Assembly (NCBI GenBank): GCA_963663405.2
Contig: CAXXSM010000036.1
Location: forward strand, 32,001-96,000
Source of the DNA: a bacterium
GTDB lineage: Bacteria; Hinthialibacterota; Hinthialibacteria; Hinthialibacterales; Hinthialibacteraceae
Direction: 5' to 3'
DNA length: 64,000 nucleotides
The position numbers and the translations under genes are program-made. The notes beneath the pieces were generated by a model. That model did not search any database. It was given only the letters and a program-made list of their open reading frames with translations, and was not told the DNA's origin. Positions within the stretch are counted from its first letter, which is position 1; each line of letters begins with the position of its first letter. Of this stretch, positions 4,532-61,400 are shown one piece after another.

Positions 4532-4553
4532 AGGTAGTAAAGGAAGAGTAAGA

Positions 4554-7391
4554 ATGAGCAGGCGTTTGGCGATTGTCTTATTCAGCGTGGTTTTGGCGCT
4601 TCCCATGATTGATGGACGGCGCGCGCAGTCCGCTGACCGGATATATATGGGAGAATCCATCTGCCGCCAGTGTCACCACGACGCGATAGGCAAGCGGAAT
4701 CAATTCAATCTATGGCGGACGTCCAAACACGCCAACGCCTATGCGGCTCTCGCCATGCCGGAAGCGAAAGAAATCGCTGAACTGTCCGGGATCGATGTGA
4801 ATCCATTTGACAGCAAGGTCTGCCTGGGATGTCACACCACCGCTCCAGAAACTGAAGCGTGGGAACGCGACAGCCGTTTCTACTTTGAAGATGGAATCCA
4901 ATGTGAAGCCTGTCACGGTCCTGGCAGTGGATATATGGAACTGGACGTGATGATGGACCGGGAAAAGGCGATGATGGCCGGATTGAAGATGCCCGGCGAA
5001 GAATTCTGTATGGTCTGTCATAAAGAAAAAGGATCGCACACCGCGGTCTTGCGAGTGAAAGAGTTTAATTACAAAGACGCGCTTCGGGAAATCGCTCACG
5101 CGGGGAAGGGAGGGGATCTCCCGCAGATGGAAAAACCCGCCGTGAAACTTGAATCCGGGCCGAAATATACGGGGGCGATGGTGTGTGGGAAATGTCACCA
5201 AGGCTCCATGATGGGCCATCAATACAGCCTGTGGCGTAATTCCCGCCATGCGCGCGCGTTTGCAGTTTTAGGCACGGAAAAAGGATTGAAGATCGCGCGC
5301 GATCAAGGGATCGACAATCCACAGAAAGCCTCCCAATGCTTGAAATGCCATTCCACAGGATACGGAAATCCACCGGGCCGGTTTCTGAAGAGTTTTGATA
5401 TTGCGCAAGGCGTACAGTGTGAAAGCTGTCACGGCCCCGGCAGTGAATACAGCCCGGAAGCGGTCATGACCGATCCCATCGCCTCCCACGAAGCGGGCCT
5501 TTTGAAGGTAAACCGGGAGACTTGTTTGAAATGTCATAACGAAGAAAATTTTGATTTTCCTAAACGAGTCAAGCGAATCGCGCATCCCAAACCGAAAGGA
5601 GATCGAGTCTCTCAAATCGAATACAAAACCCCCTTCAATCTTGCAATTACAAAAGATGGAGAACGTTTGTTCATCGCTTGTGAAGGATCGGATAGTGTTA
5701 TTGTTGTGAACACGGATATCCACCGCGTGGTGGCGGAGATAAAAATCGAAAACCTGCCTCACGCGGTTGTTCTATCACCCGATGAGACTCGTGTATACGC
5801 GGCTAACCGGGGAACGGACACCATTTCTGTGATTGACGCGAATACCTACGAAGTCCTCACAACAATCGCCGTGGGAGACGAGCCGCATGAGATGGCGCTC
5901 AATAATGTGGGGGATATACTCTACGTGGCCAACGCCGCGTCATACGATGTGTCTATAGTCGATCTGAAGCAAAACCGCGAGGTCAAACGCCTTTCCGCCG
6001 CGCGGGGAACCTGGGGAATTGCGCCTTCGCCTGACGGTAAGAGGCTTTTCGTTTCCAATAACCTTTCTCACTATGTCAAATTCCGTGAACCGTCTAAATC
6101 CGAGGTGACGGTGATCGACGCGGATCGAGGAGTTGTAACAGATCGAATTATGATTCCCTCCGCGAATTTGGTCCAAGGCGTCGCTGTAGCGCCGGATGAT
6201 GAATTCGCGCTTGTTACACTGATCCGGACGAAGAACCTTGTCCCCATGACCCGTGTGATGCAGGGATGGGTGATTACGAATGGAATTGGTGTCTTGTGGA
6301 AAGACGGGCGGGTTGATCAATTACTTCTCGATGAGGTAAATAATTTCTTCGCCGATCCGACCGATGTTGTCATTACGCCGGATGGGAAATACGCGTATGT
6401 CAGCGCGGGGGGGATCGATAAAGTAGCCGTTATTGATCTTGACAAAATGAAAGCCCTGTTGGCGCGATCGACCGATAAAGAGCGCGAAGCGATTTTGCCC
6501 AATCATCTTACCGCCAGTATGGAATTTACACTCAAACGAATCGCCGTTGGACGCAGCCCACGCGGCATGACAGTCTCACCGGATGGGCGTTTTGTTTATG
6601 TGGCTGACGGGCTGGATGACACAATTTCTGTAATTGATGTGGCGAAACAGGAACGTACGAGCGTTATCGATCTGGGTGGACCGAAAGAGATCACACTCAC
6701 CCGCAAAGGGGAACGAATCTTTCACAGCGCCGAAGTGACATATGGGCGCCAGTTCTCTTGTCATTCCTGCCATCCTGATGGCGGGATCGATGGCATTACA
6801 TACGATATTGAACCGGATGGAGTTGGTTTAGATCCAGTGGATAACCGAACCCTGCGCGGTATACTCGATACGGCTCCATTTAAATGGACGGGGAAGAATC
6901 CTTCTCTCAGCCGCCAATGCGGTCCGCGTCTGGCGGTCTTTTTTACACGTATCGATCCGTTTACTCCCGATCAGGTCAAAGCGCTCGATCGGTATATCTG
7001 TACGATCCCCCGGTCACCGAACCGGTATCGTGTGGGAGATGAGTTGACGCCAGCGCAGCGGCGTGGTAAAGAGATGTTTGAACGAACTCATTCCAACGCG
7101 GGACGAGAAATCCCAATCGGCAACCGCTGTAATACATGTCATCCTGCGCCGTATTTCACCAATCGAGAAGTGGCGGATGTCGGCACGAAATCCTGGTTAG
7201 ACCAGGAGGGAATCCTCGATGTGCCTCATCTCAACAATATTTATGAAACGCCTCCTTTTCTTCATGACGGCCGGGCGGAGACATTGGAAGAAATCTGGAC
7301 GCGCTTCAATCCGAATGACGAACATGGTCTTACAAATGATATGACCAAAGATCAACTCAACGATTTGGTTGAATATTTGAAAACACTTTAA
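4554..7391 (+). CDS. Decaheme cytochrome c: two c554-like tetraheme domains, YVTN beta-propeller, diheme cytochrome c peroxidase-like domain
   Basis: Signal peptide and 10 CxxCH motifs (CRQCH, CLGCH, CEACH, CMVCH, CGKCH, CLKCH, CESCH, CLKCH, CHSCH, CNTCH); YVANxxSxDVSIVD-type repeats; C-terminal VPHLNNIYETPPFLHDGRAETLEE...LVEYLKTL. Confidence 0.85.
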   Translation: MSRRLAIVLFSVVLALPMIDGRRAQSADRIYMGESICRQCHHDAIGKRNQFNLWRTSKHANAYAALAMPEAKEIAELSGIDVNPFDSKVCLGCHTTAPETEAWERDSRFYFEDGIQCEACHGPGSGYMELDVMMDREKAMMAGLKMPGEEFCMVCHKEKGSHTAVLRVKEFNYKDALREIAHAGKGGDLPQMEKPAVKLESGPKYTGAMVCGKCHQGSMMGHQYSLWRNSRHARAFAVLGTEKGLKIARDQGIDNPQKASQCLKCHSTGYGNPPGRFLKSFDIAQGVQCESCHGPGSEYSPEAVMTDPIASHEAGLLKVNRETCLKCHNEENFDFPKRVKRIAHPKPKGDRVSQIEYKTPFNLAITKDGERLFIACEGSDSVIVVNTDIHRVVAEIKIENLPHAVVLSPDETRVYAANRGTDTISVIDANTYEVLTTIAVGDEPHEMALNNVGDILYVANAASYDVSIVDLKQNREVKRLSAARGTWGIAPSPDGKRLFVSNNLSHYVKFREPSKSEVTVIDADRGVVTDRIMIPSANLVQGVAVAPDDEFALVTLIRTKNLVPMTRVMQGWVITNGIGVLWKDGRVDQLLLDEVNNFFADPTDVVITPDGKYAYVSAGGIDKVAVIDLDKMKALLARSTDKEREAILPNHLTASMEFTLKRIAVGRSPRGMTVSPDGRFVYVADGLDDTISVIDVAKQERTSVIDLGGPKEITLTRKGERIFHSAEVTYGRQFSCHSCHPDGGIDGITYDIEPDGVGLDPVDNRTLRGILDTAPFKWTGKNPSLSRQCGPRLAVFFTRIDPFTPDQVKALDRYICTIPRSPNRYRVGDELTPAQRRGKEMFERTHSNAGREIPIGNRCNTCHPAPYFTNREVADVGTKSWLDQEGILDVPHLNNIYETPPFLHDGRAETLEEIWTRFNPNDEHGLTNDMTKDQLNDLVEYLKTL

Positions 7392-7410
7392 GATATAAGG
7401 GATCCTAGAA

Positions 7411-8589
7411 ATGAAAGGTATCTTTCCAATCGTTTTGGCTGTGAGTTGTTTCTGTTTCACCGCATTTGGAGAAGAGAAAGCAGTTGAGAAGCCTATCCTT
7501 GCTGGGGAGCCGTATGTCTATACCGAGTGGGAAGCGTTCACGACTGAATCCACACACGGTGGTTTGATCAACGACCATATTTTCGGCCTGACGGCGGATG
7601 GGAACCGGTTGTGGATTGGAACCGAGAACGGCTTGGTTCTCTACGAAAATGGAAAATGGAAACATTGGACCGAAGAAGACGGCCTGCCGTGGCGGGTTGT
7701 CAGTTCCATCGCAGTCAGCCCTAAAACAGGTGATGTATGGGTCGGTATGTTCGGAGGAGGAATCGCTCGTTTCAGCGCTGGGCGCTTTGATCATTTCCAT
7801 CAGTTGAACAGTGGATTGGTCAATGATGTCGTCTACTCTCTTGATGTGGAAGGCGATAACATTTGGGTCGCCACGACCGCTGGAGTCAGTTCGTACAATA
7901 CAATCACGGGGGAGTGGGAAATCTACACCGAAAAAAACGCGCCGATGGAAGAAATCTGGTGCTACAGTCTCGACGCTACAAAAGATAAAGTGCATGTCGC
8001 CGTATGGGGCGGCGGTATTCTAGAATGGGATGTCAAAGACCGGACTTGGACCGATCATCACGATCCGGATGGGGAGATGGAGATTGATCTTTATCGTGAT
8101 GATGGCCTGATTCACATTATCACCACTTCCGCGTCTTACGTTGATAATATTCTGTGGGCTTCCACTTATTTCGGTTTAAGCCGTTACGATGGACGGCACT
8201 GGCGGGGATATATGGATCACGACAGCGGCCTCGCCAGCAGTTTCATCAACCTTGCTAAAGGACGGAGCGGAACCTGTTGTTATAATGCGACGGACTATGG
8301 ATTGGCGGTTTTAGTGGATTTTGAAACCGATACATGGGTCACTTATCTGCGCGAAACCGAAGACGCCAAAACGTGGACGGCGGAAGTGAAAATCGGGAAT
8401 GAATTGATTCGTAAAGTTCCGACGCAGCTCTCCCTTCCCAATCATTTCATCATTTGTGTAGAATTCATGGGTGATGATGTGTGGATTGGAACCGGTCACG
8501 GACTGGCGCGTGGCATTGGAACCGGTTATTGGCCTGGACTAAAGAAATCAGAGAAGACAGTTTCAGCGAAAACAACGAAGTCTGAATAA
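7411..8589 (+). CDS. Secreted beta-propeller protein (two-component regulator propeller repeats)
   Basis: Signal peptide; repeated GLxxxxVxxxxxxGxxxWxGT units (LWIGTENGL, IWVATTAGV, VWIGTGHGL). Confidence 0.75.
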   Translation: MKGIFPIVLAVSCFCFTAFGEEKAVEKPILAGEPYVYTEWEAFTTESTHGGLINDHIFGLTADGNRLWIGTENGLVLYENGKWKHWTEEDGLPWRVVSSIAVSPKTGDVWVGMFGGGIARFSAGRFDHFHQLNSGLVNDVVYSLDVEGDNIWVATTAGVSSYNTITGEWEIYTEKNAPMEEIWCYSLDATKDKVHVAVWGGGILEWDVKDRTWTDHHDPDGEMEIDLYRDDGLIHIITTSASYVDNILWASTYFGLSRYDGRHWRGYMDHDSGLASSFINLAKGRSGTCCYNATDYGLAVLVDFETDTWVTYLRETEDAKTWTAEVKIGNELIRKVPTQLSLPNHFIICVEFMGDDVWIGTGHGLARGIGTGYWPGLKKSEKTVSAKTTKSE

Positions 8590-8612
8590 AAACATACTTG
8601 TTACGAGGTGAT

Positions 8613-9992
8613 ATGATGAAACAGTTCTTCGGCGTAATCTTTCTAATAAGTGTGTTATCTGGCGCGTGGGTATGGGCGGATGATGTATCCAATCCGCCTG
8701 CGAAATCGGAAAGCGCCGGGATAGCGAATTCGACGGAACTGCCAAATTATGGGGGGACGCCGGAGGAATATGTCCCCTTTGGACATTTTACGAAACCATA
8801 CAAGCGCTTTTTCCTTGAACCGCTTTTGTATCGGGGGTATGGACGTCATATCCCCGAACCCAAGCATGTGGAAAGCGTTAAAATCGGCTTTATCGGCCCA
8901 ATCATGAAAACCGTGTCGGTCGCGACAGGCGGCGCTTCGCATGAAGAACCACTCGGCCTAAAGATGCTGCAAGGCGCCCGCCTGGCGATCGAACACGCCA
9001 ACGCCAACGGTGGCTATCGTGGATCAGGCATCCCGTATGAGTTGGTCGTTAAAAATGACAACGGCCTTTGGGGCGCGTCCGGAAGTGAGATTATCGACCT
9101 CGCTTACAAAGATAAAGTCTGGGCGATTGTTGGCACGATCGACGGCGCCAACAGCCATATCGCGATCCGCGTCGCTCTAAAGATTGAAATCCCCATGATG
9201 AACACCGGAGACACCGATCCGACGTTTATCGAGACCAATATCCCTTGGGTGTTCCGCAATATCACCGATGATCGTACGATGTGTTATTTGTTGGCCGATT
9301 TCGCATTCAAGAAGCTGGGATTGACCAAAATCGCCGCTCTCCGCGCCGGCAACCGCTATGGACGCATGAGCATTGATGAGTTCCGCGACGGCGCCCGGCG
9401 GCTTGGATTTCCATTTGCCACGGAAATGCAGTATCGATTGGGGGACACCGACTATACTACTCAACTTAAACGGATTCAGGATCTTAAACCGGACGCGGTG
9501 ATTACGTACGGCAATTCATATGAATCCGCGCTGGTTCTCAAACAAATGCGGGAGATGGGGATGGATCAATGGTATTTCGGCAGCGACCGTATGGTGACAC
9601 AGGAATTTCTCGATATTGTTGGAGACAAAGCGGGTAAAGTCGCCGCTGGTTATCCCTATAATCCCACCAGCAAGGATGATAGACACGTTCAATTTATTGA
9701 AGCGTTCAAAGAGCGCTTTGGCGCCGAACCGGAAACATACGCGGGCCATGCCTACGATGGCATCGAAATGTTGGTCCAGGCGATTGAAGAAGCGGGTTTG
9801 AACCGCGCGTTGATCCGTGACACTCTTGCGGAGATGACTAATTTTCATGGCGTCACCGGTATAAAAGAAATGGACGCGGTTTTCAGCAACCGTTCAAGCG
9901 CCTGTCTTGCGATTGTGGAGGATGGTGAATTCAAATTCTATACACGCGATCAAATTTTGGGTGAAGATTCCCTCGAATTTACGAAACGTTAG
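8613..9992 (+). CDS. Type I periplasmic binding protein (branched-chain amino acid ABC SBP family)
   Basis: ATG at 8613 after GAGG; VKIGFIGP, GARLAIEHANANGG, YAGHAYDG, FHGVTG motifs. Confidence 0.85.
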   Translation: MMKQFFGVIFLISVLSGAWVWADDVSNPPAKSESAGIANSTELPNYGGTPEEYVPFGHFTKPYKRFFLEPLLYRGYGRHIPEPKHVESVKIGFIGPIMKTVSVATGGASHEEPLGLKMLQGARLAIEHANANGGYRGSGIPYELVVKNDNGLWGASGSEIIDLAYKDKVWAIVGTIDGANSHIAIRVALKIEIPMMNTGDTDPTFIETNIPWVFRNITDDRTMCYLLADFAFKKLGLTKIAALRAGNRYGRMSIDEFRDGARRLGFPFATEMQYRLGDTDYTTQLKRIQDLKPDAVITYGNSYESALVLKQMREMGMDQWYFGSDRMVTQEFLDIVGDKAGKVAAGYPYNPTSKDDRHVQFIEAFKERFGAEPETYAGHAYDGIEMLVQAIEEAGLNRALIRDTLAEMTNFHGVTGIKEMDAVFSNRSSACLAIVEDGEFKFYTRDQILGEDSLEFTKR

Positions 9993-10007
9993 TCTTGGCA
10001 GGTCCCG

Positions 10008-11207
10008 ATGAGACGAATTGGAAAATGGCTCCGGGGGGGATGGTTTATCTTCCCCGGTTTCTTTATTTTTACTTATTTACACGTAAGTTACGCAGCCGAA
10101 AGCCTCCCATCCATTCCTCATAAACGCATGTTAGATGATCCGCTCGAGTTTACTGGCCGCGAGGGGCCGGTGGGCGATCCAATGAAGTTGGGAGAGATCC
10201 GCATCGGTTTTTTTGCGCCGGTTGATGGTTCCGATCCTGTGGGGGACGCAATGTGGAAGGGGGCGTCTCTCGCTGTCGAGGAGGCGAATCGCGCTGGAGG
10301 GTATCAACAAGTTCCATATCGGTTGATATCGCGTTGGGCGGATGATCCTTGGGGAGCGGGTTCAAAGGAGATGATCCGGTTGGTCTATGAAGATCGCGTC
10401 TGGGCGGTGATCGGCTCGATTGACGGTGATACGACTCATATCGCCGAACAAATTGTTACTAAAGCGCGTCTGCCTCTCATTTCACCCGTGTCGTCCGATC
10501 CTACGCTGACGTTCATCCGGATTCCCTGGATTTTTCGCCTGGCGCCGGACGATCGCTCGCAGGCGAACGTTCTTGTCAGCGATGGCATAATCCAGCATGG
10601 TTGCAAGCGAATCGGATTGATCACAGCGTCCAACCATGATGGACGGATCGCGGCGAAAGAATTGAAAGACGCGCTGGGAAAAAATAATATAGCGCCTGTC
10701 TGTCATCTTATTCTGCCACCGGATCCGGAATCCTTTGGGGAATTGGCGGATAAACTTCAGGCGTTTCACTGTGACACGCTGGCGCTGGCGATTCCTAGAG
10801 ATTCAATAGGACCATTGTTGAAGTCATTCAAAAATAATAATATCAAAATCCCTGTTTTTTTTCCTTGGATACCCGGCGCCGATGAAAGAGAGTTAAAAAA
10901 ACTATATGAAGGAATGTTGGTTACTATTCGTCCATTTGAAGAAGATACTCTAACAGAACAGTATTCCACGTTCCTTCTGGCCTATCAAAATCGGTTTGGG
11001 GAATCCCCTAACGCTTGCGCGGTGTATGCGTATGACGCGGTGAACATCATTGGTAAAGCCATTCAATCCCAAGGTTTGAACCGGGCGCGTATCCGCCGCG
11101 CATTGGCTGATATGAAATGTGGAGAAGGAGTGACGGGGAAAATCGTCTGGGATCATGGGGGAGGGAATCCAGGGCGCCCGTTGATCTATAAGATCACCGC
11201 CCCATGA
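10008..11207 (+). CDS. Second type I periplasmic binding protein, paralogue of the upstream gene
   Basis: IRIGFFAP, GASLAVEEANRAGG, VWAVIGSIDG, AVYAYDAV, GVTGKI motifs. Confidence 0.85.
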   Translation: MRRIGKWLRGGWFIFPGFFIFTYLHVSYAAESLPSIPHKRMLDDPLEFTGREGPVGDPMKLGEIRIGFFAPVDGSDPVGDAMWKGASLAVEEANRAGGYQQVPYRLISRWADDPWGAGSKEMIRLVYEDRVWAVIGSIDGDTTHIAEQIVTKARLPLISPVSSDPTLTFIRIPWIFRLAPDDRSQANVLVSDGIIQHGCKRIGLITASNHDGRIAAKELKDALGKNNIAPVCHLILPPDPESFGELADKLQAFHCDTLALAIPRDSIGPLLKSFKNNNIKIPVFFPWIPGADERELKKLYEGMLVTIRPFEEDTLTEQYSTFLLAYQNRFGESPNACAVYAYDAVNIIGKAIQSQGLNRARIRRALADMKCGEGVTGKIVWDHGGGNPGRPLIYKITAP

Positions 11208-12293: not shown

Positions 12294-12611
12294 ATGAAAT
12301 ATAATCGTCTAATTTTACTTTTCGCGGTAGGTTTCCTGTGTGTCTCTATGTTTGGATGCGCGGGTGGATCGAGAAGAGTCGTTCTCGATGATCAAACCAT
12401 CGCCCTGCAAATCAAAGACCAGCTCGAAGCCACCAGCGGGCCGGAAGGTCCATTTGAAATTGATGTCATTGTGGATGCTGGAGAAGTTACTTTAGATGGA
12501 GAAGTCCCAACTCCACTTGCGAAAGAAAAAGCGATCGAAATCACCCAGATCACAGAGGGTGTCAAGGATGTGAAAAGCTACTTGATCGTCCGGCAACCGT
12601 CCAACCAGTGA
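12294..12611 (+). CDS. BON-domain lipoprotein
   Basis: GGAGG RBS; lipobox-like MFGC; DDQTIALQIK...GEVTLDGEV...EGVKDVKSYL. Confidence 0.85.
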   Translation: MKYNRLILLFAVGFLCVSMFGCAGGSRRVVLDDQTIALQIKDQLEATSGPEGPFEIDVIVDAGEVTLDGEVPTPLAKEKAIEITQITEGVKDVKSYLIVRQPSNQ

Positions 12612-13226: not shown

Positions 13227-13305
13227 GTAGGGCGCCTCACGCTTTATCGACCCACCGGGAATGATTTACGAAAATGGCGCCTCAAAAAGACGCGACCCAC
13301 CCTAC
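13227..13305. repeat. Degenerate REP-like element
   Basis: Bounded by GTAGGG and CCCTAC, with two GACCCACC copies; a similar GGTGGG...CCACCCTA lies at about 51011-51036. Confidence 0.4.
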
Positions 13306-13520
13306 ATGCTATTTCTTATCTGTCGATTTCTTCTTATCAGAAGAAAGAGGAGGCACACCGGTTCCACCCTTGGGTGGATTATTGGGATCTAGATTTTCAT
13401 ATATTGGTTGATAGCCTTTCATTAACAGATTATTTACTTCTTGCATTTTTCTGAATATCTTTTGTTTTTTTTCTTTATCCATTTTTTATTCCCATAGTGA
13501 GAGAATTATTGGGCTGGAAT

Positions 13521-13835
13521 TTAGACAGGTTGCAAGTTTTTGTTGACTGGGACGAATGATATTTGAAGCCGCTTATTCAAAACAGAAGCAATACGTTGAA
13601 GCATACGCAAGGAATGACCTTCGTAGTCAGCATTTTCTAGATCGGCGATTATGGATTGACTAATCCCTAAAAGTTTTGCTAATTCGGCCTGTGTTAGGTT
13701 CGCGTTCATTCGCGCATCATAAATAAGTTGCGCAACCTGAGCGTTAATAGCCGCTTGTTCAACAAGCTCACGGAGTTCACTATCGGTTCCAATCATCTGA
13801 TCGATAATTTTCAGAGCATTATTTGTTTTAGGCAT
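13521..13835 (-). CDS. XRE/HTH antitoxin (HigA-like)
   Basis: ARMNANLTQAELAKLLGISQSIIADLEN HTH motif; overlaps the stop of the upstream toxin; ATG at 13835. Confidence 0.85.
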   Translation of the reverse strand: MPKTNNALKIIDQMIGTDSELRELVEQAAINAQVAQLIYDARMNANLTQAELAKLLGISQSIIADLENADYEGHSLRMLQRIASVLNKRLQISFVPVNKNLQPV

Positions 13836-27600: not shown

Positions 27601-29901
27601 TCAGTTTTCGGCTAAAGGAGAAGAGGAGACAACGCGGAAACCCAATCCGGAACCTTTATTGTCTTCACCACCCCGGTTGCGGCTCGCTGAACGCATAATT
27701 TCAGCGGAAACGCTCCAACTGCCGCTTCGAGTTACATGGAAGGCGCCGGAAGGACTCCCTTTGGGATCGGTTTGATCCCCTTCTGGATACGCGCCGTACC
27801 AATCCGCGCACCATTCCCAAACGCTGCCACTCATATCGCGCAGACCCCAGGTGTTTGGTTTTTTCTGGCCAACGTTATGTGTCTGGTAATTCGCGTTCCC
27901 CTCATACCAGGCGTATTCCTCAATCTGCTGGATCGAGGGATCGTTTCCCCAATAGAAACGCTGGGTGGTTCCCGCGCGGCAGGCGTATTCCCATTCCGCC
28001 TCCGTAGGCAGGCGGAACGTATATTGAGTCACTTTTGATAACCAGGCGCAAAACGCAGTGGCGTCATTCCAACTAACGTAGACGACAGGTTGATTGGCGC
28101 CGTTCAATGAGAATCCTCGGTAAGATTGGCTATTATGTTCGGGCCGGAACGCATGATACTGCTTGTTTGTCACTTCATGTGTACTCATCCAGAATGACTG
28201 TGTGATTTTTACTTTATGCGCAGGGCCTTCATCCGCATACCGTCCCTTCTCGTTCGGAGGACTCCCCATGACAAATTCTCCAGGGGGAATAAAACGGAAT
28301 TTCATGGGAATCTTGCCCGGAAGAACGATAGTGGTTTCATCCCCCGCTTTGTTTGACAGCGGCGTTTCGGTGGCGGGCGCCGGACTGGGGACTGGAGTGG
28401 GAGGCGCAGGCGTAGCGGCCGGTGTTTGTTTTTTTAGGATTGGTTTATAATCCCTTTCCTCTCCTTCTTTCAGGTCGATCCACACTGTTGAAGTTTCATA
28501 ATCGTTGGCGGAAACCTCTATCTGATATCGACCTGGTTCCAATTCCATCCCTTGTTCGAATTTGGGGCTGATATTTAAAATACGAACGCGCGCGTCCGCT
28601 GGTTCGGGATGAACGGTTAAATGGGCAGAATTGAGAGAAGCCATCGCTGATGGCGCTGGAACGGGGATGGATGGTGTTACCGTAATGAAGGGAGCAACGG
28701 ATCCTAGCGTGGGTGTTGGATAGTATGCGATGGTTTCAAACGTGGGGTGAGGAGTAGGAGTCGAAACCTTTATTTGAGTGACGGATTTTTCCGATTGAAA
28801 ACTTTTCGAGAACTCGAATCCCATTACAATTAAGAGAAAAGCCAAGAGGATGGATAAAAGTACCGCCAGCGTTCGATTAACGCGCTCTGTTCCACCGATG
28901 GCCGGAACCGTATACCTTTTAACCATCGCAGGTTCGGGCGGCGTGTCATATCGTTGTAATTGAAGAGCCTCTACCGGCAGTTCCGCGAGGATATCTTCTA
29001 ATCCCGGTCTCTTTTCCTGAGCCTTCTCCAAGATCCGGCTTAAGAGAAAACGGTATTGTTCCGGCGCGTTTTCGACTAAGGACTGGGTAGGATCATCTTC
29101 TTTATGTTTCTGCATTAAAACAAACGGATTTTCGTCATCAAACAACCGTTTGCCGGTCAGCATTTCGTACCACAGAATTCCCAGCGAATATATATCACTC
29201 GCTGGTGTGATGTTTTCGCTTCCTTCACATTGTTCGGGGGACATATACGCTACGGTTCCAAATCCTCCCACCGTCACACTTTTGGAATCCACCCGTTTTG
29301 CGACACCAAAGTCACAAACGACGATACGTTCCAGATCGCCGTTATAGAGCAGGACATTGCTGGGTTTTAAATCGCGGTGAATAACGCCTCGTTCGTGAGC
29401 CGCCGCTAACGCCCGTATAATTTGCGCGACGATTTTCGCCGCTTCATCCGGCGTCAAATGTCCACGCGCTTTGATGGTGTCGGCTAAATCCATATCACCG
29501 GGAATATATTCCATTTCAATAAACGGCGCTTCAGCCAGCTGCGTGGAGATTGTGCCCATCGTAAAGACGTTGACAACGGGGGCTTCCGGTACCTGCTGCT
29601 TGATCGTTTGCAGGATTTCCCCTTCCCGCCGGAAGCGCTTGACGATTTCTGGATCGCCCAGTTGTTCCGGCCGCAGTACTTTCAGCACACACTCTCGTCC
29701 CGCTTCGCTGTTGTAGGCTTTATAGACCTTCGCCATCCCGCCCTTTTCGGAAAGAAGCGTCATGCGCCGGTACGGGCCTAATTGTGTCAGGGATATACCC
29801 GGCCCGCCTGCGTTTCCCTTCCGCATCAACACGATCAGCAGTGTTACCAGAACGGTAAGAAGCGCTCCTCCGAGAATGTATAGACCGGCCTCCGTACTCA
29901 T
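27601..29901 (-). CDS. Membrane Ser/Thr protein kinase with extracytoplasmic PEGA-like and FGE-sulfatase (CLec-fold) domains
   Basis: Likely ATG at 29901; HRDLKPSN, DFG, GTVAYMSPEQ; TM helices on both sides of the kinase; FRLPTEAEWEYACRAG, DMSGSVWEWC. Confidence 0.9.
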   Translation of the reverse strand: MSTEAGLYILGGALLTVLVTLLIVLMRKGNAGGPGISLTQLGPYRRMTLLSEKGGMAKVYKAYNSEAGRECVLKVLRPEQLGDPEIVKRFRREGEILQTIKQQVPEAPVVNVFTMGTISTQLAEAPFIEMEYIPGDMDLADTIKARGHLTPDEAAKIVAQIIRALAAAHERGVIHRDLKPSNVLLYNGDLERIVVCDFGVAKRVDSKSVTVGGFGTVAYMSPEQCEGSENITPASDIYSLGILWYEMLTGKRLFDDENPFVLMQKHKEDDPTQSLVENAPEQYRFLLSRILEKAQEKRPGLEDILAELPVEALQLQRYDTPPEPAMVKRYTVPAIGGTERVNRTLAVLLSILLAFLLIVMGFEFSKSFQSEKSVTQIKVSTPTPHPTFETIAYYPTPTLGSVAPFITVTPSIPVPAPSAMASLNSAHLTVHPEPADARVRILNISPKFEQGMELEPGRYQIEVSANDYETSTVWIDLKEGEERDYKPILKKQTPAATPAPPTPVPSPAPATETPLSNKAGDETTIVLPGKIPMKFRFIPPGEFVMGSPPNEKGRYADEGPAHKVKITQSFWMSTHEVTNKQYHAFRPEHNSQSYRGFSLNGANQPVVYVSWNDATAFCAWLSKVTQYTFRLPTEAEWEYACRAGTTQRFYWGNDPSIQQIEEYAWYEGNANYQTHNVGQKKPNTWGLRDMSGSVWEWCADWYGAYPEGDQTDPKGSPSGAFHVTRSGSWSVSAEIMRSASRNRGGEDNKGSGLGFRVVSSSPLAEN

Positions 29902-31895: not shown

Positions 31896-32063
31896 GAATC
31901 TCTCCTTTATTTTGTAAAAATCGCTCGAACGCTACGTCCCATTTTTCGCGCTGTTTATAAATAACAATACTTGCGCCGCCGTGTTTTTAAAATCCCTGCA
32001 TGATTCCATGTTTTTACTATGCTTTGAGATTAAATTCTGGTTAAAAAGAAAGATCCTAAGCGC

Positions 32064-46129: not shown

Positions 46130-46526
46130 TGGGGATAAAAACCAGTGGCCAATACAGTTGCGCGATGAGCGGATGGTCACGGCTGCTTTAACCGCTCCGC
46201 AAACATTGAATTTTTTATGGCTCATCCGGAAATTGGGCGCATTGCGTTTTTTCTTAGGAAATTTCACCATATTTTGTAAGTTTTATCATTGTGATACCTC
46301 AAATTTCCTAGGAAAAAAGCATCGATACTCCGTGATCTGTTAAATGTCAAAAGTAATCTGTCAAATATTTGTGTATCTTATTCTATGATTATCTAATCTT
46401 TGAATAGACTATCGGAATATTGATTATTGGGTGTTTTGCAATCTGTTTTTTAAAATGATCAATACAAGGATTTCTTTAAATCTTAGCAAGTTTTTCAAGA
46501 TTCTTAAGTATAGAATATTCAATCAG

Positions 46527-46640
46527 TTATTAACAAAGAAAAAATAGAATTGGTATTATCCGTATAACTGTGGAGCGTGTGGATAACGGCTTTATCGTTA
46601 TCCAAGTGGCTGTGGGCAATATCGATAGATTTGTCCACAG
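46527..46640. promoter_or_regulatory. Cluster of DnaA-box-like 9-mers next to an AT-rich tract (candidate replication origin)
   Basis: TGTGGATAA (46578-46586, perfect), TTGTCCACA (46631), TGTGGGCAA (46611), TTATCCAAG (46598), TTATCCGTA (46556), TTATTAACA (46527). Confidence 0.45.
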
Positions 46641-47067
46641 ACACGTCACGATCCATAGGGCTTTCGATTACACTTTTTATTAAAAATTCAATCGATGTGC
46701 CCAATTTCCGGATGAACCTTTTTTATAGTAAATCCGAGAAAATTGTGTCAAGTGTAGCTTGGATCGCTGTAAGTATTATTGACCCGGATTTAAAAGACGC
46801 TTTTTAACAGCCGTTAGCACATGGTTTTTGATTTTTCTCATTTCGTTGGCGCCGATAAATCTCCAATTCTGGTTCCGATTGGTAAAATTTAATCGTGTAA
46901 AATCAAATCTCAACTTTCCCATTCTCATTTTTGACCAAGAAGTTAAGTAATCTTTGGATCCGATTCCTTCCTGCTCAACGAGTCGAGAGTATAAGAGCCT
47001 TGAGGATCAATGGAGTCGCTGCATGAATTATGTCCATAGAGGTTCGATTTACAAGTCTGAATCAAAC

Positions 47068-47815: not shown

Positions 47816-47897
47816 AGTCAGATAAAGCCAAACCTGTTGTGAAACAGGGACGGAAAGCTGCGGGTCTTGTTTATAAAGAGACAGCCGGGCCGCCTGA
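47816..47897 (+). ncRNA. Cyclic di-GMP-I (GEMM-I) riboswitch aptamer
   Basis: AAAGCCAAACC-stem/GAAA loop-GGGACGGAAAGC..GGGTCT...AGACAGCCGGGCCGCC matches the GEMM-I consensus; TCAG/CTGA can close P1. Confidence 0.9.
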
Positions 47898-47925
47898 GTG
47901 AGTTTGTAGGCGGCTCGGTTTTTTT
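47885..47925 (+). terminator. Riboswitch expression-platform terminator
   Basis: CCGGGCCGCCT / AGGCGGCTCGG stem followed by T7; the 5' arm overlaps the aptamer 3' end. Confidence 0.85.
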
Positions 47926-47969
47926 ATGTTTCAATAAAAATTGACATTCCATTATCAAGGAGGCTGTTC

Positions 47970-50639
47970 ATGTTAGAGAGAACGGTTCGTTTCATCACAG
48001 TATTGTTTGTTTCCGTATTTTTTACATCTTTAGCGAGCGCAGCGGTGCCGGGGATTATTGGGTACCAGGGACGAGTGATGGTGGATGGATCACCCTTTGA
48101 TGGGACGGGACATTTCAAGTTCGCGATCGTGACATCCACCGGTGAGATTTTATGGAGCAACGATGGGACGGCCGGGACGAATCTCGTTCCCGGTTCCGCG
48201 GTTTCGCTTTCCGTGAACGAAGGATTGTTCTCGCTTGGATTGGGGGATACGAATCTGGAAAAAATGGATTATGTGATTCCGCCGGATATTTTCAGTAATC
48301 CGGAAGTCTATCTGCGGGTCTGGTTCAGTTCGGATGGATCAACGTTTGAGCAACTCTCGACCGATCAGCGGATTCTGGTTGTCGGCTATGCGATGGAAGC
48401 GGCGCATGCGGAAGAAGCCGATCAGGCGGCCACATCGAATCACGCCGATGTGGCGGATGCCTTAACCGGTTTCGATATCACAACGCTCTGGGGGCTGACA
48501 GGCAACGCGGGGACCACGCCCGGAACTGATTTTCTGGGGACAACGGATAATCAGGCTCTCGAATTCAAAGTGAACAGTCTACGCGCGATGCGGCTGGAAC
48601 CGAATCCCTTCTCTCCCAATGTCATTGGTGGAAATCCTGGAAACAGCGTCACAGCGGGGATGTATGGCGCTAGTATTGGTGGTGGTGGACAGGGAGGACA
48701 ACTCAATCAAGTAACCGCCCATTTTGGAACCATCGGTGGTGGCCGAAACAATACGGCAGGAGCTGTCGATTCGACCATTGGAGGAGGATTTACTAATACC
48801 GCATCCGGTGAAAGAGCTACCGTTGGTGGAGGACAAGGCAACACCGCGAGTGGGAATTATGGAACCGTCGCGGGAGGGCAAAGCAACACCGCGGAAGGGA
48901 ATTATGGAACTGTACCGGGAGGATTGGATAACACTGCGGAGGGAATCTTAAGTTTCGCGGCGGGCCGAAGGGCAAAAGCGTTGCACGATGGTAGTTTCGT
49001 CTGGGGAGACAAAACCAACGCAGATATTGAATCCACAGGGGAAAATCAGTTTGTGGTTCGGGCCAATGGGGGGACGTTTATTCATGGAAATATGGATGTT
49101 TCGGGAACGGCTGAAGTGGATCAACTTACTGTTACAGGAACGTTAACCGCTGATACATTCAAAGCGAAAGATTCTGATCACGCCGATGTAGCGGATACCC
49201 TAACCGGATTCGATCCCAATTCAAAATGGGGACTCTCTGGTAATACGGGAACGATTCCGGGGACTGATTTTCTAGGCACAACGGACAACCAGGCTCTTGA
49301 ATTCAAAGTGAACAATCAACGCGTGATGCGGCTGGAACCAAACTCCTTCTCTCCCAATATCATTAGTGGGAATCCTGGAAACAGTGTTACAGCAGGGATG
49401 TATGGCGCCACTATTGGTGGTGGTGGGCAGGGACAGGGAAATCAACTTAACCAAGTAACCGCCCATTATGGAACCATCGGTGGTGGCCGAAACAATACGG
49501 CAGGAGCTGTCGATTCGACCATTGGAGGAGGATTTACTAATACCGCATCCGGTGAAAGAGCTACCGTTGGTGGAGGACAAGGCAACACCGCGAGTGGGAA
49601 TTATGGAACCGTCGCGGGAGGGCAAAGCAACACTGCGGAGGGAATCTTAAGTTTCGCGGCGGGGCGAAGGGCGAAAGCGCTGCATGATGGAAGTTTCGTC
49701 TGGGGTGACAAAACCAACGCGGATATTGAATCCACAGGGGAAAACCAATTTGTGGTGCGCGCGAATGGCGGGACGTTCATTCATGGAGATCTCACTGTTA
49801 CCGGAAATGTATCGGTGCCAGCGAAATGGCCAAGTGGATTTGAGGTAATTACGGTCAATCTACCTAATCTAGCGGCCGGTTCCAAACCATTACAACTTGT
49901 CAATATAAACGCGGGGGTATTTCGAATAGGTAGCCTGAACAGCGATCCGGATGCAGACTCTTTGGAGAAACCTCAACATAGTGTATTTATCAGTAAGGAT
50001 TATTACATGGGGAAGTATGAGGTGACGCAGGCGCAGTGGGAGGCGGTGATGGATGGGAATCCATGGGGAATCAGTACAACTCCTTCGTATTTTAGCGGGA
50101 ACGACCGTCCTGTGGAGATGGTTAGTTGGTACGATTGCGCGCGATTTTGCAATCGATTAAGTGAGATGGAGGGAAGGACGTCCGTGTACGATCTGTCAAC
50201 GTGGGCGATTGATTATGAAGCGGATGGGTATCGGATGCCGACGGAGGCGGAATGGGAGAACGCGTGCCGCGCGGGGACTACGACGCGGTATTATTGGGGG
50301 GATGATTTGAGTTATACGGAGATCGGGGATTACGCTTGGTATTATTATAATTCATCGTCACAAACACATGAAGCCGGTTTAAAACTACCAAATGCCTGGG
50401 GCCTATATGATATGAGTGGAAATGTCTGGGAATGGTCTAATGATTGGTATAGTAGCACGTATTATACCATTGAAAATAAAATCGATCCAACCGGTGCGGC
50501 AACGGGCTCGCTCCGTGTGCTTCGCGGTGGCGGTTGGGGCTACGGCGCCGAGGACTGCCGGTCTGCGTTTCGCTACTACTACTCGCCCGGCAACCGCGCC
50601 AGCTCCGTTGGCTTCCGGCTCCTGAGGTCTTACCCTTGA
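47970..50639 (+). CDS. Secreted fibre-like adhesin: tail-fibre-type N-domain, duplicated YadA-head-like 14-aa repeats, C-terminal FGE-sulfatase/CLec domain (putative DGR target)
   Basis: AAGGAGG RBS, signal peptide, IGYQGRV, NTASGxxxTVxGGxx repeats, YRMPTEAEWENACRAG, YDMSGNVWEW, RVLRGGGW...VGFRL. Confidence 0.85.
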   Translation: MLERTVRFITVLFVSVFFTSLASAAVPGIIGYQGRVMVDGSPFDGTGHFKFAIVTSTGEILWSNDGTAGTNLVPGSAVSLSVNEGLFSLGLGDTNLEKMDYVIPPDIFSNPEVYLRVWFSSDGSTFEQLSTDQRILVVGYAMEAAHAEEADQAATSNHADVADALTGFDITTLWGLTGNAGTTPGTDFLGTTDNQALEFKVNSLRAMRLEPNPFSPNVIGGNPGNSVTAGMYGASIGGGGQGGQLNQVTAHFGTIGGGRNNTAGAVDSTIGGGFTNTASGERATVGGGQGNTASGNYGTVAGGQSNTAEGNYGTVPGGLDNTAEGILSFAAGRRAKALHDGSFVWGDKTNADIESTGENQFVVRANGGTFIHGNMDVSGTAEVDQLTVTGTLTADTFKAKDSDHADVADTLTGFDPNSKWGLSGNTGTIPGTDFLGTTDNQALEFKVNNQRVMRLEPNSFSPNIISGNPGNSVTAGMYGATIGGGGQGQGNQLNQVTAHYGTIGGGRNNTAGAVDSTIGGGFTNTASGERATVGGGQGNTASGNYGTVAGGQSNTAEGILSFAAGRRAKALHDGSFVWGDKTNADIESTGENQFVVRANGGTFIHGDLTVTGNVSVPAKWPSGFEVITVNLPNLAAGSKPLQLVNINAGVFRIGSLNSDPDADSLEKPQHSVFISKDYYMGKYEVTQAQWEAVMDGNPWGISTTPSYFSGNDRPVEMVSWYDCARFCNRLSEMEGRTSVYDLSTWAIDYEADGYRMPTEAEWENACRAGTTTRYYWGDDLSYTEIGDYAWYYYNSSSQTHEAGLKLPNAWGLYDMSGNVWEWSNDWYSSTYYTIENKIDPTGAATGSLRVLRGGGWGYGAEDCRSAFRYYYSPGNRASSVGFRLLRSYP
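50505..50639 (+). other. Putative DGR variable region (VR)
   Basis: Only 9 A in 50505-50624 (120 nt) and none at third codon positions; ligand-facing codons are almost all NNC/NNT. Confidence 0.7.
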
Positions 50640-50712
50640 GTGCTTTTACCCTATAGGGCTTGGAGGGAGAAAACTCGGAGAACGGAATAGGTAGAGAATG
50701 GAATCTGGAATG

Positions 50713-50862
50713 AACGGGCGGCGGCGAAGCGATAGCCGGCGTCCGCCCGTTAAGGCTCCGGCGCAAGCGCCGGTTCATGGAAGATGGAATGAACGGTGGT
50801 AGAAGGAAAGATTTGGAGTTCATAAACCGGAGAGGGGCGCTGGGGAGATATATCTCCCCAGC
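50713..50862. other. GC-rich hairpins downstream of the VR
   Basis: AACGGGCGG/CCGCCCGTT (50713-50751), CCGGCG-CAAG-CGCCGG (50758-50773), perfect 24-bp palindrome GCTGGGGAGATATATCTCCCCAGC (50839-50862). Confidence 0.7.
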
Positions 50863-50880
50863 TCGCGCGGGATTTGAATA

Positions 50881-51003
50881 GTGTGATTGTCTGAACCATG
50901 ATTATAAGGATTAAAGGATTTCCATGATTTAAAATCAAGTAGGCCTGAGCCGCGCGATGGCGGCTTTTATCAAGTAAATCATGAAAATCAAGGTTCAGAC
51001 AAA
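50881..51003. repeat. 9-nt-periodic hairpin repeat, subfamily B, complete
   Basis: TTGTCTGAACC...GGTTCAGACAA terminal stem with periodic GATT/ATC motifs. Confidence 0.85.
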
Positions 51004-51058: not shown

Positions 51059-52177
51059 ATGAAATCGAAAATTATAACCATAGCATTTCTACTGTGTATT
51101 ATTCTATACCCACCCGGATTACATGCCGGAGTAGAGATCAATCCCAACGGGATAGGCTCAGGAGCCCACGCGTCAGGCGGAGGCTCCATCTCAATGTTCG
51201 CCGCGCTGGAGACAGGAGGAACATCTTCGTCAGGGAATGGTCGAGTAATAATTCATTCCGGTTTCATCGGGCAACTATCAACCGGCGGAAGCAACACAGC
51301 GCCCGTTGTCGATCCAAATATCGATGTGCTCGTGACCGGCTATCAAGCCGATTTAACAGCAATCTTCACCGATCCAGACGCGTCTGACACACATACCGCC
51401 TCGATTGATTGGGGAGATGGATTTACATACCCAGGTGTGGTCACACCTGGAACCGGTGGAGGTACCGTGACGGGAAACCATCTCTATACGGGAGATGGGA
51501 TCTACACAATTACAGTGACGGTTGAGGATTCACCGGGTGAAACCGGATCGGCTGATGTGACGATCTGTATCTTCTCGTATCTAGTCAACAGTGATGGAAC
51601 GGGAGGCGGTGTCAACAAATACTGGCCGGGAACGCTCGGATATTTCGACGCATGGTGGACCGCGACGGATTACGCAGGCGGTGATTCGAGCAATCCAGCG
51701 TATCCCTTCTATCCCGCCTGGTGCGCGTATTTGGATACGCTCATCCAGCTGGGCGTATGGTACAACAATGTCGGAATGTATTCCTCCCTGACCGATACGT
51801 GTTCATTGGTTGACAATCCAGAAAACCTGGACTTGGTGAATTACTTATTATTTAAATATCGTCTTGGAACGTATATCCCATATGGCGCAACCAATAGAGA
51901 AATCCAGGCGGTGATTTGGCGGCTCCTCTTTAACAGCAGTTTTAAGTGGGATGAGACCAACCATGTGCCGGATGGAGGAATTACGTGGGATATTGGCATC
52001 GCTGATCAAGTCTATACGAATGTGTTAGGTGGATCGCTTCCCCCGTATGATAGTAATGACACACTTCCTATCGTTGTTATCATCGATTGCGGCGATCAGG
52101 TGAATTTGATTGAGATACCTTATTACATTTTTGTTGAATTATTATCACGTGGGATCGTGGTGGATGGGTGTCTGTAA
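51059..52177 (+). CDS. Secreted PKD-domain protein
   Basis: Signal peptide LHA-G; FTDPDASDTHTASIDWGDG...HLYTGDGIYTITVTVED. Confidence 0.8.
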   Translation: MKSKIITIAFLLCIILYPPGLHAGVEINPNGIGSGAHASGGGSISMFAALETGGTSSSGNGRVIIHSGFIGQLSTGGSNTAPVVDPNIDVLVTGYQADLTAIFTDPDASDTHTASIDWGDGFTYPGVVTPGTGGGTVTGNHLYTGDGIYTITVTVEDSPGETGSADVTICIFSYLVNSDGTGGGVNKYWPGTLGYFDAWWTATDYAGGDSSNPAYPFYPAWCAYLDTLIQLGVWYNNVGMYSSLTDTCSLVDNPENLDLVNYLLFKYRLGTYIPYGATNREIQAVIWRLLFNSSFKWDETNHVPDGGITWDIGIADQVYTNVLGGSLPPYDSNDTLPIVVIIDCGDQVNLIEIPYYIFVELLSRGIVVDGCL

Positions 52178-58469: not shown

Positions 58470-61400
58470 CTACTCCTCATAGAAATGCAAGAACACCGGA
58501 TTCTCATTTGTAACGTCAATCTCACCATACAATGAATGCGTAATCGTAGCGGGAAGATTGTAGACCGTATCCCCCGCCGTTCCAATCACTCTACGGCTTC
58601 AATCGGCTCTTCTGTAATTTGTACCCACCGCGTATTGTTCGCGCGGGGAGGATCGCCGATGATGAATTTATACAAATGCGCTTTACCGGGATTTTCTTGT
58701 TGACGGTGAATTGCGCCGTTTCCGGGGACGCGGTGTAGAAATAAGACACATTGTTCTTGTACCGCCATATCGCGCCCCATTTATCCCCATCGGCTGTGGT
58801 CCATCCGCAGGTCATCGTATTGTCTTTCTCCGGATCATCATCCTCCCGCCGATCACTCTGCGCGGGAATCCAGACTTGATACTCCTCATTAAGGCCTAAA
58901 TTCCATCTTCCGGCGCTCCGGAGGAATGGAGCGCCTGACCGATGGTCCGAATCACCCGGTCCGAGCCGGATTCAGCCGTTCTGAACCATCCTGTATCATA
59001 GGAGGTGTCTCCATTGTAATGGTGAACCCAATAGAGGCAGTAATCCCAATGACTCCCCGATTCAGACTGCATCGTCGCATCCATCAAAATCGTACGCAGG
59101 TAATAAATGCCCTGTGTGCGTTCGTTGGCGTCCGCGCATCCATATACACTGTTTGGATTGGGCTAAGCCCATATTCAGAGACAGCGTAGCGGGGATAGTA
59201 ATCATAGAAATGACAGATGGTATCCAGCGTATCAAGGCGTTCGATCCATTCCTTGGTTCCTTCCCCTTCATGCAGATATTCAGGGGGCGCGATACCAGGA
59301 TAACCATTGATGGCGATAATCTCAGGCAATAATTCGGTTGATCCATCCGCTGTTTCTATAATTTTCTGGATAAATCCATTGAGAAACGCCAGCCCGGTCC
59401 GGCCGTTGTCCTCTTTCCAAGGACTCGACACACCTTCCGTGATAAAATCAAGGATCGGTGACTTTCGATGCTGCCACTCAAGATAGGCAGGTTCGGCCAC
59501 CGTGTTTTGATCCGCTCACGCGCGGCGAGATAATAATCCGCGAAGATCTGACCCGCATAGAAACAATTGCCATCCAGATATCCCCATTTTTCCTCTTCTT
59601 CATTGCCCAGCTGCACGCCGATTAACGTCGAACCAATCGCGCCGGGCACAGCCAGTTCGATTAATTCCAAACGGTATTCCACCCAATCCGCGTAGCCTTC
59701 AGGATCGCAGGTATACCGCCGCTCGAATTCATCCGTATTCTGATCGTATGCGATTAAATCCAAGTTCCACCAGCAGTCACTGCATGTCAATGGATGAAGG
59801 TCGCAGTCGATCCCATAATGGAGATTCCCACAACCGAACAGCATAATCATTTTCATCCCACGTTCCTGCGCTTTTAGAACCATATCAATATTGTCCCGGA
59901 ACGTTTCTTGCGCAAAGTAACGGATGATTGTTTGATTGTCATCGTTCATCTCATCGATATCATCTTCCGTAGGCTCATAACTCGCGTAACTCTGAATACT
60001 CGCGCCGAATTGAGGGACCGATAGAGCGGGGATTGGCGTCTCAGTGGATTCAGGAACAGGTTTATCATATTCGGGATCTACCATGACAAGACGGAGTGAT
60101 ATCGATGTGGAACTGATAAACGGCTGCATTTTACCGCGGGCGGCCGAACGGCAACCTACTGGATCGCCATTCCAGAATCCGCCGCGTATCACACGCGAAT
60201 CCCCCGAAACAGGCCCGTCAGGATCGGTCTTCGAACCGGTTTCATACGGTCCATACCAATCATGGCACCATTCGTAACAACCGCCGCTCATATCATAGAT
60301 TCCCCAATTGTTCGGTTTCTCTCCCCAACGGGCCGTGTCCGGCCATAGGAGTTGTACCAGTTCCAGGCGTACGCGTCGATCTGTTCGTATGTGGGATCGT
60401 TCCCCCAATAGTACCGTGTCGCCGTTCCTGCGCGGCAGGCGTGCTCCCATTCCGCTTCCCTCGGCAACCGGAACTCGCCCAATCCCATATCGTTCAAGTT
60501 CTGAATAAATTCCAGACAGTCATACCAATTCACCGATTCTACGGGAAGGTTTTCATCTCCCCCGAAAAATGAAGGATTCTTCCCCATCACCGCTTCCCAC
60601 TGCGCTTGGGTGATGAGATATTTACTAATATAAAATCCTTTGGTGAGAATCACTTGATGCTGAGGCCCTTCTTCCTCAAGCCGCTCTTGTTCATTGTCCG
60701 GACTGCCCATCAGATACGCCCCTGCCGGGACATAGACCATTTCTAAAGGTTTTACATCTTCAGAAAGATTGGGGATCTCAATCACAATCGTCTCTCCCCC
60801 TTGCTTGGGAAGAGTCGGCGTTGGACTGACATACGGCGTATCCGTCGGCGTCAACGTCGGAGTCGAGGTAGGGAGCGGTGGAGATGTATGTGTTGGAATC
60901 GGCGTTGGTGTAGTAATCCCATAGTTTTCCGGAACACTCAGGCGCGCCGGATCGAGTTCATCATTATTTAAGAAATCCGCGTGATAGAATCTCTCAATAT
61001 CAAAGAGATAAACATCGAAATTATCCAAATATACTGTAAGCGGATCGTCCTCACTCGTGTTGACGATTTGAATCAATGGTTGGAAACCAGTGGAGGGAGG
61101 CACAAAGAATGTCGAAAGCCTCTTATATTGATTCACGTAATACGATCCATCGCTCGCGGCGTGAGTAGAAATAAACACCGGTGAATCCTGCCCGACAGTG
61201 GCGATCGTAATCGATGAGTGCGCCGCGTCCGATCGAACCGAACAGCGGATCATGGCCGCATTTTCCGTTTCAATCATCGGCCCGAAAATCATCAATCCTT
61301 CCCCGGATCGGCGGTAATAATCGCGCCAACGCCATCCGTGGCGTCTTCAAACGCTTGGTCCATTGGAATAGCGCCGTATTCGATTTCCGCTCGCGGATAT

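Follow-up and report, generated by a model that had tools for sequence, protein, structure and literature searches.

How does a gene come to carry the marks of a diversity-generating retroelement (DGR) target when no other part of such an element lies near it? The question is raised by one gene, at 47970–50639, in a 64-kb window of a Hinthialibacterota genome (the whole stretch of DNA analysed: positions 32,001 to 96,000 of contig CAXXSM010000036.1, assembly GCA_963663405.2; coordinates without a contig name are those of the window). A preliminary description of the window had noted that no reverse transcriptase (RT), Avd or template repeat (TR) was in sight, and none was found in the 64 kb. 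The gene is a remote or orphan DGR target, and we consider it very likely that it encodes a secreted, probably trimeric fibre with a TvpA-type, DGR-written tip and riboswitch-gated expression. The features on which this answer turns are as follows.

47970..50639, plus strand: coding sequence (open reading frame, ORF), 889 aa, encoding a secreted fibre protein that ends in a DGR-type variable domain
49893..50627, plus strand: FGE-sulfatase / C-type-lectin-fold domain, residues 642–886 (PF03781, E 2.1e-49, profile positions 4–255 of 255)
50496..50607, plus strand: DGR variable region (VR); differences from the paralogue on contig C6 at 31 sites (21 codons), and 7 more sites with A in both
50608..50641, plus strand: invariant 3' end of the VR, resembling an initiation of mutagenic homing (IMH) sequence, with the GC-rich start TTGGCTTCCGGCTCC

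The end of the gene is the most A-poor sequence in the window. Nowhere in the 64 kb, on whichever strand, is the A count lower than at 50503–50622, with 9 A in 120 nt; the 120-nt windows starting at 50503–50505 have 9 A each, against a 64-kb mean of 30.7 (sd 6.6), and on the plus strand counts of 10 or fewer per 120 nt are confined to 50502–50631. A scan of the minus strand over the 64 kb (T ≤10 on the plus strand) gave no stretch with 10 or fewer. The GC content is 0.70 over 50496–50615, against 0.478 over the 64 kb. A occurs 4, 8 and 0 times at codon positions 1, 2 and 3 of the final 45 codons, compared with A fractions of 0.29, 0.28 and 0.22 in the remainder of the gene. The depletion described earlier is thus real, as is the complete lack of wobble-position A (0 in the last 45 codons against 22% elsewhere in the gene), and the window's two other FGE genes, 27616–28308 (−) and 60073–60315 (−), do lack an A-poor end, with 23 A each in the last 120 nt against 11. 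Among the FGE genes compared by tblastn of the window FGE domain against the genome (46 high-scoring segment pairs, 37 reaching the C-terminal block), none had fewer A over the last 120 nt than the window gene (11). The genome's three other VRs have 17, 20 and 20 A and overlap with ordinary FGE paralogues (18–22), which ruled out the A count alone as a classifier of VRs.

The preliminary description had suggested looking for other targets with the same VR scaffold, and one was found on contig C6 (C6:24095–26356, minus strand), with about 75–95% identity to the window gene along most of its length. Between about 50438 and 50700 the copies differ at just 31 sites, all inside 50496–50607. Mismatches number 31/112 in this interval, 12/276 in 50220–50495 and 0/93 in 50608–50700, a concentration with a Fisher p of 9.8e-13. 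By codon position 1/2/3 the 31 mismatches are distributed 17/9/5, against 9/10/24 in 49980–50495, and at 19 of them A is kept in one copy. With the 7 sites that are A in both copies, the predicted template would hold at least 38 adenines; 11 of them persist in the window allele and 22 in the C6 allele. The VR, covered by codons 843–880, sits at the C-terminus of the FGE/C-type-lectin fold, and the alignment of this domain with TvpA continues through it. The TR that had been drafted from the window gene proved close to real TRs (those at locus L046 of a relative and L040 of a metagenome contig) and to the A-retaining C6 allele. Its guess that CTT at 50519–50521 derives from AAT failed: the CTT is shared unchanged by both copies and by the TR relic at locus L033 of a relative.

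The real template is not in the assembly, and the relation of the variable sites to adenines was examined with stand-in TRs of the same scaffold family, taken from other genomes or other DGRs. Against the L033 relic, which lies beside a VR, 17/24 A sites and 4/61 non-A sites were variable (Fisher p 4.3e-9), and 6 of the 7 A sites that do not vary have A in the window as well as in C6. The intact TR of L046, beside an RT in another relative, gave 14/23 A against 1/60 non-A sites (p 4.1e-9), the metagenomic L040 TR 19/28 against 7/91 (p 4.9e-10), and the TR of a DGR on contig C100 of the same genome, which does not match the window VR, 19/33 against 4/56 (p 2.7e-7). The TR-to-VR differences within L046 and L040 themselves fall on A in 16/18 and 17/19 cases, respectively, and across relatives the A content of this scaffold is 8–14% in VRs and 24–29% in TRs. 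To the extent that stand-ins can show it, the mismatches are A-specific: the variable sites track the adenines of all four. Because the C6 differences fall on TR adenines of related DGRs, we conclude from these alignments that 50496–50607 is, as had been proposed for the gene end, a genuine DGR-type VR in an FGE/C-type-lectin domain, and that it was written by adenine-specific mutagenic retrohoming. In this process, the RT would copy the TR with random misincorporation opposite adenine, and the cDNA would replace 50496 to about 50626 and so write codons 843–880. We conclude that at least one such homing event came after the window and C6 loci last shared an identical 3' end.

The remainder of the protein agrees with a fibre that carries this domain at its tip. 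Its further features are:

47957–47963, plus strand: ribosome-binding site AAGGAGG, read directly from the sequence
47970..48041, plus strand: probable Sec signal peptide (hydrophobic core, then ASA|A), from the translation
48439..49107, plus strand: fibre module 1, UspA1-head-like beta-roll repeats, an 82% internal duplicate of 49177–49806
49177..49806, plus strand: fibre module 2, duplicate of module 1, with a UspA1 match

Module 1 matched PDB 3pr7 (UspA1; E 5.8e-20, residues 236–421) and module 2 matched PDB 3ntn (UspA1; E 5.2e-8, residues 510–614); module 2 is missing from the C6 paralogue. The N-terminal 630 aa had 7814 homologues at E ≤0.001 among 8000 candidates scored, some members of this family are labelled “tail fiber domain-containing protein” by their sources, and most of the 120 homologues listed end in Peptidase_S74 (PF13884). 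These labels and the UspA1 head matches bear out the fibre-like character attributed to the protein earlier. A Pfam search of the 889 aa reported only PF03781, with no YadA-type membrane anchor and no PF13884. We infer that the protein forms trimers and serves as an adhesin. The top PDB sequence match of the FGE domain was TvpA (2y3c; E 3.6e-41, 144.5 bits), aligned through the VR, with PDB FGE enzymes well behind at E about 1e-19. In the printed alignment with one of these, 6muj, the first Cys of the C-x4-C pair, which we take to be the catalytic cysteines of FGE, stands opposite the variable-site Tyr858 (Asn in C6). Because of this position the window domain is very unlikely to be an enzyme and would instead be a binding module. 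Protein P0002 is a fibre-FGE protein 74% identical to the window protein, with a VR-like C-terminus that is, by eye, of the C100 scaffold type.

Upstream of the gene lies a riboswitch leader, as the preliminary description had stated:

47818..47898, plus strand: c-di-GMP-I-type aptamer, best model the c-di-GMP-I-GGC variant (RF03167, 70.8 bits, gathering score 59)
47883..47927, plus strand: intrinsic terminator, 14-bp stem and T-run, in both the minimum-free-energy and centroid folds

The RF03167 match spans model positions 1–80 of 80, and the same interval scored 62.6 bits on the canonical RF01051 (gathering score 35). The terminator uses the 3' half of the aptamer as its 5' arm, and the two folds are therefore mutually exclusive. 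Since the terminator overlaps the aptamer, the leader would act as an ON switch: the ligand-held aptamer would occupy the 5' arm of the terminator, transcription would read through, and fibre production would follow high levels of the second messenger. The ligand is most likely cyclic di-GMP (c-di-GMP). Of the c-di-GMP control proposed for the gene, the presence of a c-di-GMP-I-type riboswitch was upheld, with the qualification that Rfam scores its GGC variant above the canonical model. This variant was reportedly once proposed as one of possibly altered specificity. Passages of PMC12452182 group it with the c-di-GMP riboswitch classes.

Six copies of the riboswitch were found in the genome, with the terminator stem and T-run kept in 6/6. 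Two precede fibre-FGE genes, namely the window gene and its 753-aa paralogue on C6, and two precede fibres with S74-type C-termini on C110 and C29; the S74 call rests on protein P0003 (PF13884) for C110 and on similar C-terminal sequence, by eye, for C29. A fifth leads a 326-aa secreted protein on C85. The copy on C64 (C64:14931–15303, locus L048; 68 bits) had no downstream ORF ≥150 aa; there the homology to the window fibre gene, 93.5% identical, ends after about 220 nt of coding sequence, and this copy is probably a truncated paralogue. An Rfam search of the VR loci of five relatives found no riboswitch, and the link to a riboswitch is therefore not general for the VR family of the window.

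Several points weigh against a DGR-written tip. The adenine comparison uses TRs from other genomes and not the true template, and for each stand-in 1 to 7 variable sites lie on non-A positions. Codon position 3 accounts for five of the variable sites, and the two paralogues provide a single pairwise comparison. A matching TR was not found in the 82%-complete assembly: a genome search with the VR and blastn returned only C6, a regular expression with the variable sites left free and ≤20 mismatches returned only the two VRs of the genome, and a relative's TR blasted against the genome matched the C6 VR only. The A-only-differing copy beside an RT gene, which a BLASTN search of the genome had been expected to reveal, did not appear. 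The only DGR-type RT, on C100, has a different TR and 3' end and appears frameshifted.

The assembly comprises 8.44 Mb in 170 contigs. A scan of it for AAC density gave only low-complexity coding repeats. In the viral contig collection, the scaffold pattern and the 22-mer of the 3' end had 0 matches each. The genome contig collection yielded two loci without a matching TR: L037, where a NACHT-like protein of a metagenome-assembled genome (MAG) labelled Deltaproteobacteria carries a VR, and L038, the same TR relic as L033 in a record labelled Candidatus Omnitrophota MAG, a label that a homologous FGE protein likewise bears. Five loci from the metagenome contig collection were four unrelated VRs and one unrelated TR (L040), the contig of which also bears its own VR. 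Two RT genes are present in the assembly, on C77 and C100. The C77 gene was ruled out as a DGR RT and belongs to a group II intron (GIIM domain, intron RNA models), and no second DGR-type RT or bAvd scored above the cut-off in the assembly. Complete TR-RT cassettes of the scaffold family of the window are present in related genomes.

The DGR on C100 (C100:30218–36507; about 4200–10500 of locus L012) consists of bAvd (77 bits), an RT (RVT_1, 55 bits), one TR and two VRs:

C100 33619–33746: TR; the VRs are 87% and 84% identical to it
C100 30331–30455 and 35281–35408: two VRs, in a TIR-FGE gene and a TIR/NACHT-associated FGE gene

It adjoins a tRNA and, by eye, integrase-like and phage portal-like genes, and in the assembled sequence its RT and its two targets are broken across two or more frames. 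The C100 TR has the general scaffold in common with the window VR; it cannot be the donor because its sequence and 3' end differ, and it was rejected as such. Separately, the 10-mer GCTTTTACCC, of which the 8.4-Mb genome has 17 copies, about as many as expected by chance, lies 2–20 nt past the stop codons of all four genome VRs, which represent two unrelated TR families (window 50642–50651; C6 24092; C100 30304 and 35254). Strings similar to CTTTTAC were also seen behind some VRs of metagenomic origin (L039, L042).

Either the unassembled 18% of the genome contains the matching TR and RT, or they were lost recently. If a TR-RT(-Avd) cassette sits in the unassembled part, both fibre tips would still be rewritten in trans; we give this a chance close to even, just short of it. 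An assembly in 170 contigs and 82% complete favours it, the window and C6 genes are both intact, and there are 0 mismatches in 81 + 93 scaffold and 3'-flank sites against 12 in the adjacent 276 nt. From this identity beside diverged sequence it follows that homing postdates a recent homogenisation. Remote targets are also documented: passages of PMC5758913 report 45/372 DGRs with non-adjacent targets and 10 with targets >100 kb away. However, neither the TR nor a second DGR-type RT or bAvd was found in the assembly. The single public run with the stretch (X1), with contigs at a depth of about 2, contained only the window and C6 alleles, as a 172-nt piece with the exact window sequence and another piece that matches the C6 allele. 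Short pieces of higher depth in X1 have A at 50564, 50569 and 50574 and probably derive from VRs or TRs of other organisms. A 1886-nt X1 contig of depth 2, in which a C6-type 3' untranslated region (UTR) and window-type downstream sequence are joined over a 60-nt identical stretch, is possibly an assembly chimera. The same absence of a matching TR and RT would be seen if the writing DGR had been lost and both alleles were frozen, evolving as ordinary sequence. A fossil of this kind is plausible, although we are inclined to doubt it; such decay is seen at L033 (VR and truncated TR relic, no RT in 13.6 kb), and the C100 cassette with its split RT and targets also looks degraded. On the other hand, no scaffold site has been substituted since the last homing, so any loss of the DGR was very recent, and the missing 18% of the genome explains the absence of the TR equally well. 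An active remote target and a very recent orphan thus stand on roughly equal terms.

Two further explanations dispense with a missing or lost cassette. That the RT and bAvd of C100 serve the fibre genes is suggested by their being the sole DGR-type RT and bAvd in the assembly and by GCTTTTACCC just 3' of all four VRs, but retrohoming requires homology between TR and VR, and the C100 TR has a different 3' end, found no match to the window VR in the genome search or by blastn, and fails the regular expression even with ≤20 mismatches; this explanation is close to refuted. It is also highly improbable that the two genes are an ordinary FGE paralogue pair that diverged by selection or compositional drift with no DGR involved. 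The differences are limited to 112 nt within an otherwise identical 263-nt tract, are biased to codon positions 1 and 2, and coincide with the TR adenines of four independent stand-ins, a coincidence that speaks strongly against such a pair. In its favour are the facts that the A count alone cannot separate VRs from other FGE paralogues and that the TR is not present in the assembly.

The sequence downstream of the VR was examined together with the repeats that flank the gene:

50703..50785, plus strand: conserved long hairpin in the 3' UTR (RNAalifold, 4 sequences from 2 genomes)
50839..50862, plus strand: perfect 22-nt palindrome CTGGGGAGATATATCTCCCCAG, with a compensated counterpart in L033
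47444..47557, plus strand: short dispersed repeat, left copy, 84% identical to 50878–50991
50878..50991, plus strand: short dispersed repeat, right copy, at which homology to the C6 locus stops (sequence comparison)

We infer that 50608–50641 is an IMH-like end; TR homology probably ends near 50626 by analogy with L046, in which the TR and VR part after the homologous CTGAG. An invariant GC-rich VR end matches the definition of the IMH in passages of PMC5758913. Directly 3' of the invariant end there is only a 10-nt palindrome, CCCTATAGGG. The long hairpin lies 65–150 nt past the stop codon, flanked by conserved GGAATCTGGAATG and CATGGAAGATGG boxes, and hairpin and palindrome are kept in both copies of this genome and in two loci of one relative. 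RNAalifold predicted 41 pairs, of which 16 show a double change in at least one sequence (four sequences, two genomes), and several stem pairs are maintained through double changes between the two genomes. According to the abstract of PMC3240598, a hairpin/cruciform immediately 3' of the BPP-1 VR promotes homing. The 3' hairpin of the window contains an insertion at 50749–50772, a GC-rich mini-hairpin of 24 nt (GGCTCCGGCGCAAGCGCCGG); it is absent from C6, and near-identical copies are present on C23, C73, C92, C104 and C141.

In related genomes the FGE-VR module with its structured 3' UTR was seen on other proteins and in decay. At L035 (6610–8037, minus strand), where fibre and riboswitch are both absent, the same module and the conserved 3' hairpin are attached to a different N-terminus with a transmembrane segment and helical repeats, which shows that module and 3' UTR form a cassette joined to different N-termini. 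At L033 the TR relic (about 12317–12403, minus strand) is 3'-truncated and AAC-rich and lies about 850 nt downstream of the VR at 13246–13575. A GxxExxY-like ORF with an in-frame stop and short dispersed repeats separate the two, and no RT was found within the 13.6 kb examined.

The genes neighbouring the fibre gene are cellular and encode a GH32 protein, a pectate lyase, a PKD protein, a LamG protein and a pseudopilin. Directly downstream, 51059–52177 encodes a secreted PKD-domain protein, the C-terminal part of which resembles, by eye, the riboswitch-led protein of C85 (C85:29398–30378), and a homologue of this PKD protein is also found downstream of the C6 fibre gene. The 51059–52177 protein and the C85 protein may act together with the fibres. 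Direct copies of the short repeat bracket the riboswitch-fibre cassette; its core of about 50 nt occurs on >30 contigs, and the repeat resembles a repetitive extragenic palindromic (REP) element or miniature inverted-repeat transposable element (MITE). An element of about 505 nt at 46213–46727 has 98–99.6% identical copies on at least eight other contigs (C110, C151, C153, C73, C103, C23, C148 and C7) and no ORF above about 75 aa, and it has the appearance of a non-autonomous mobile element that was active recently.

Among known systems, the variable domain is most readily compared with TvpA of Treponema denticola (2y3c), which has an FGE-type C-type-lectin domain with the VR at its extreme C-terminus. 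TvpA has a known TR and RT, whereas the window gene has no matching one in the assembly; the window protein, unlike TvpA, has about 640 aa of trimeric-fibre-type repeats before the domain and a riboswitch leader. The prototype DGR target, Mtd of Bordetella phage BPP-1, is a tail-fibre tip. By description, the window protein resembles Mtd in its variable C-type-lectin fibre tip and A-to-N mutagenesis, but the gene is cellular rather than of phage origin and its domain belongs to the FGE subclass. The abstract of PMC3240598 allows a further likeness to BPP-1, an invariant GC-rich VR 3' end followed by inverted repeats, although the conserved hairpin of the window lies about 65 nt past the stop and not immediately after the VR. 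Seven related remote DGR targets are described for T. denticola in passages of PMC5758913, according to which FGE-type, multiple and remote targets are already established.

The other parts of the locus have their own relatives. The N-terminal 630 aa are shared with S74-ended tail-fibre proteins, and two riboswitch-led paralogues (C110, C29) are S74-type, whereas the window protein has the FGE variable domain in place of the S74 chaperone. Its head-like repeats match those of the UspA1/YadA trimeric autotransporters, but Pfam did not report a YadA-type anchor in it. It is similar to SUMF1/FGE over the full PF03781 profile (PDB FGEs at about 1e-19) and differs in having the variable Tyr858 where the enzyme has the first Cys of C-x4-C. 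The leader resembles c-di-GMP-I (GEMM-I) riboswitches in scoring above the gathering score on both RF01051 and RF03167 and in its terminator platform (6/6), and differs in that its best model is the GGC variant. What the locus adds is a fibre-tip architecture in a cellular gene together with a c-di-GMP-type riboswitch leader. In literature searches on these pairings, judged by titles and abstract openings, no link between DGRs and riboswitches or between DGRs and c-di-GMP turned up.

Because no other DGR part lies within reach, finders anchored on an RT or a TR would miss the DGR target of the window. Its VR was recognised by composition and confirmed by comparison with a paralogue, an approach applicable to MAGs generally. 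For the organism, the finding puts a binding domain written by a DGR on the tip of a fibre under riboswitch control. As a tentative extension, the genome may possess a second-messenger-gated hypervariable adhesin system, a small six-riboswitch regulon for secreted fibres in which two fibre tips are still rewritten in trans by an unlinked, unassembled DGR distinct from that on C100, which would itself be a defence-type TIR/NACHT DGR. If this is true, a freshly diversified binding surface would be displayed only upon commitment to the surface-attached state.

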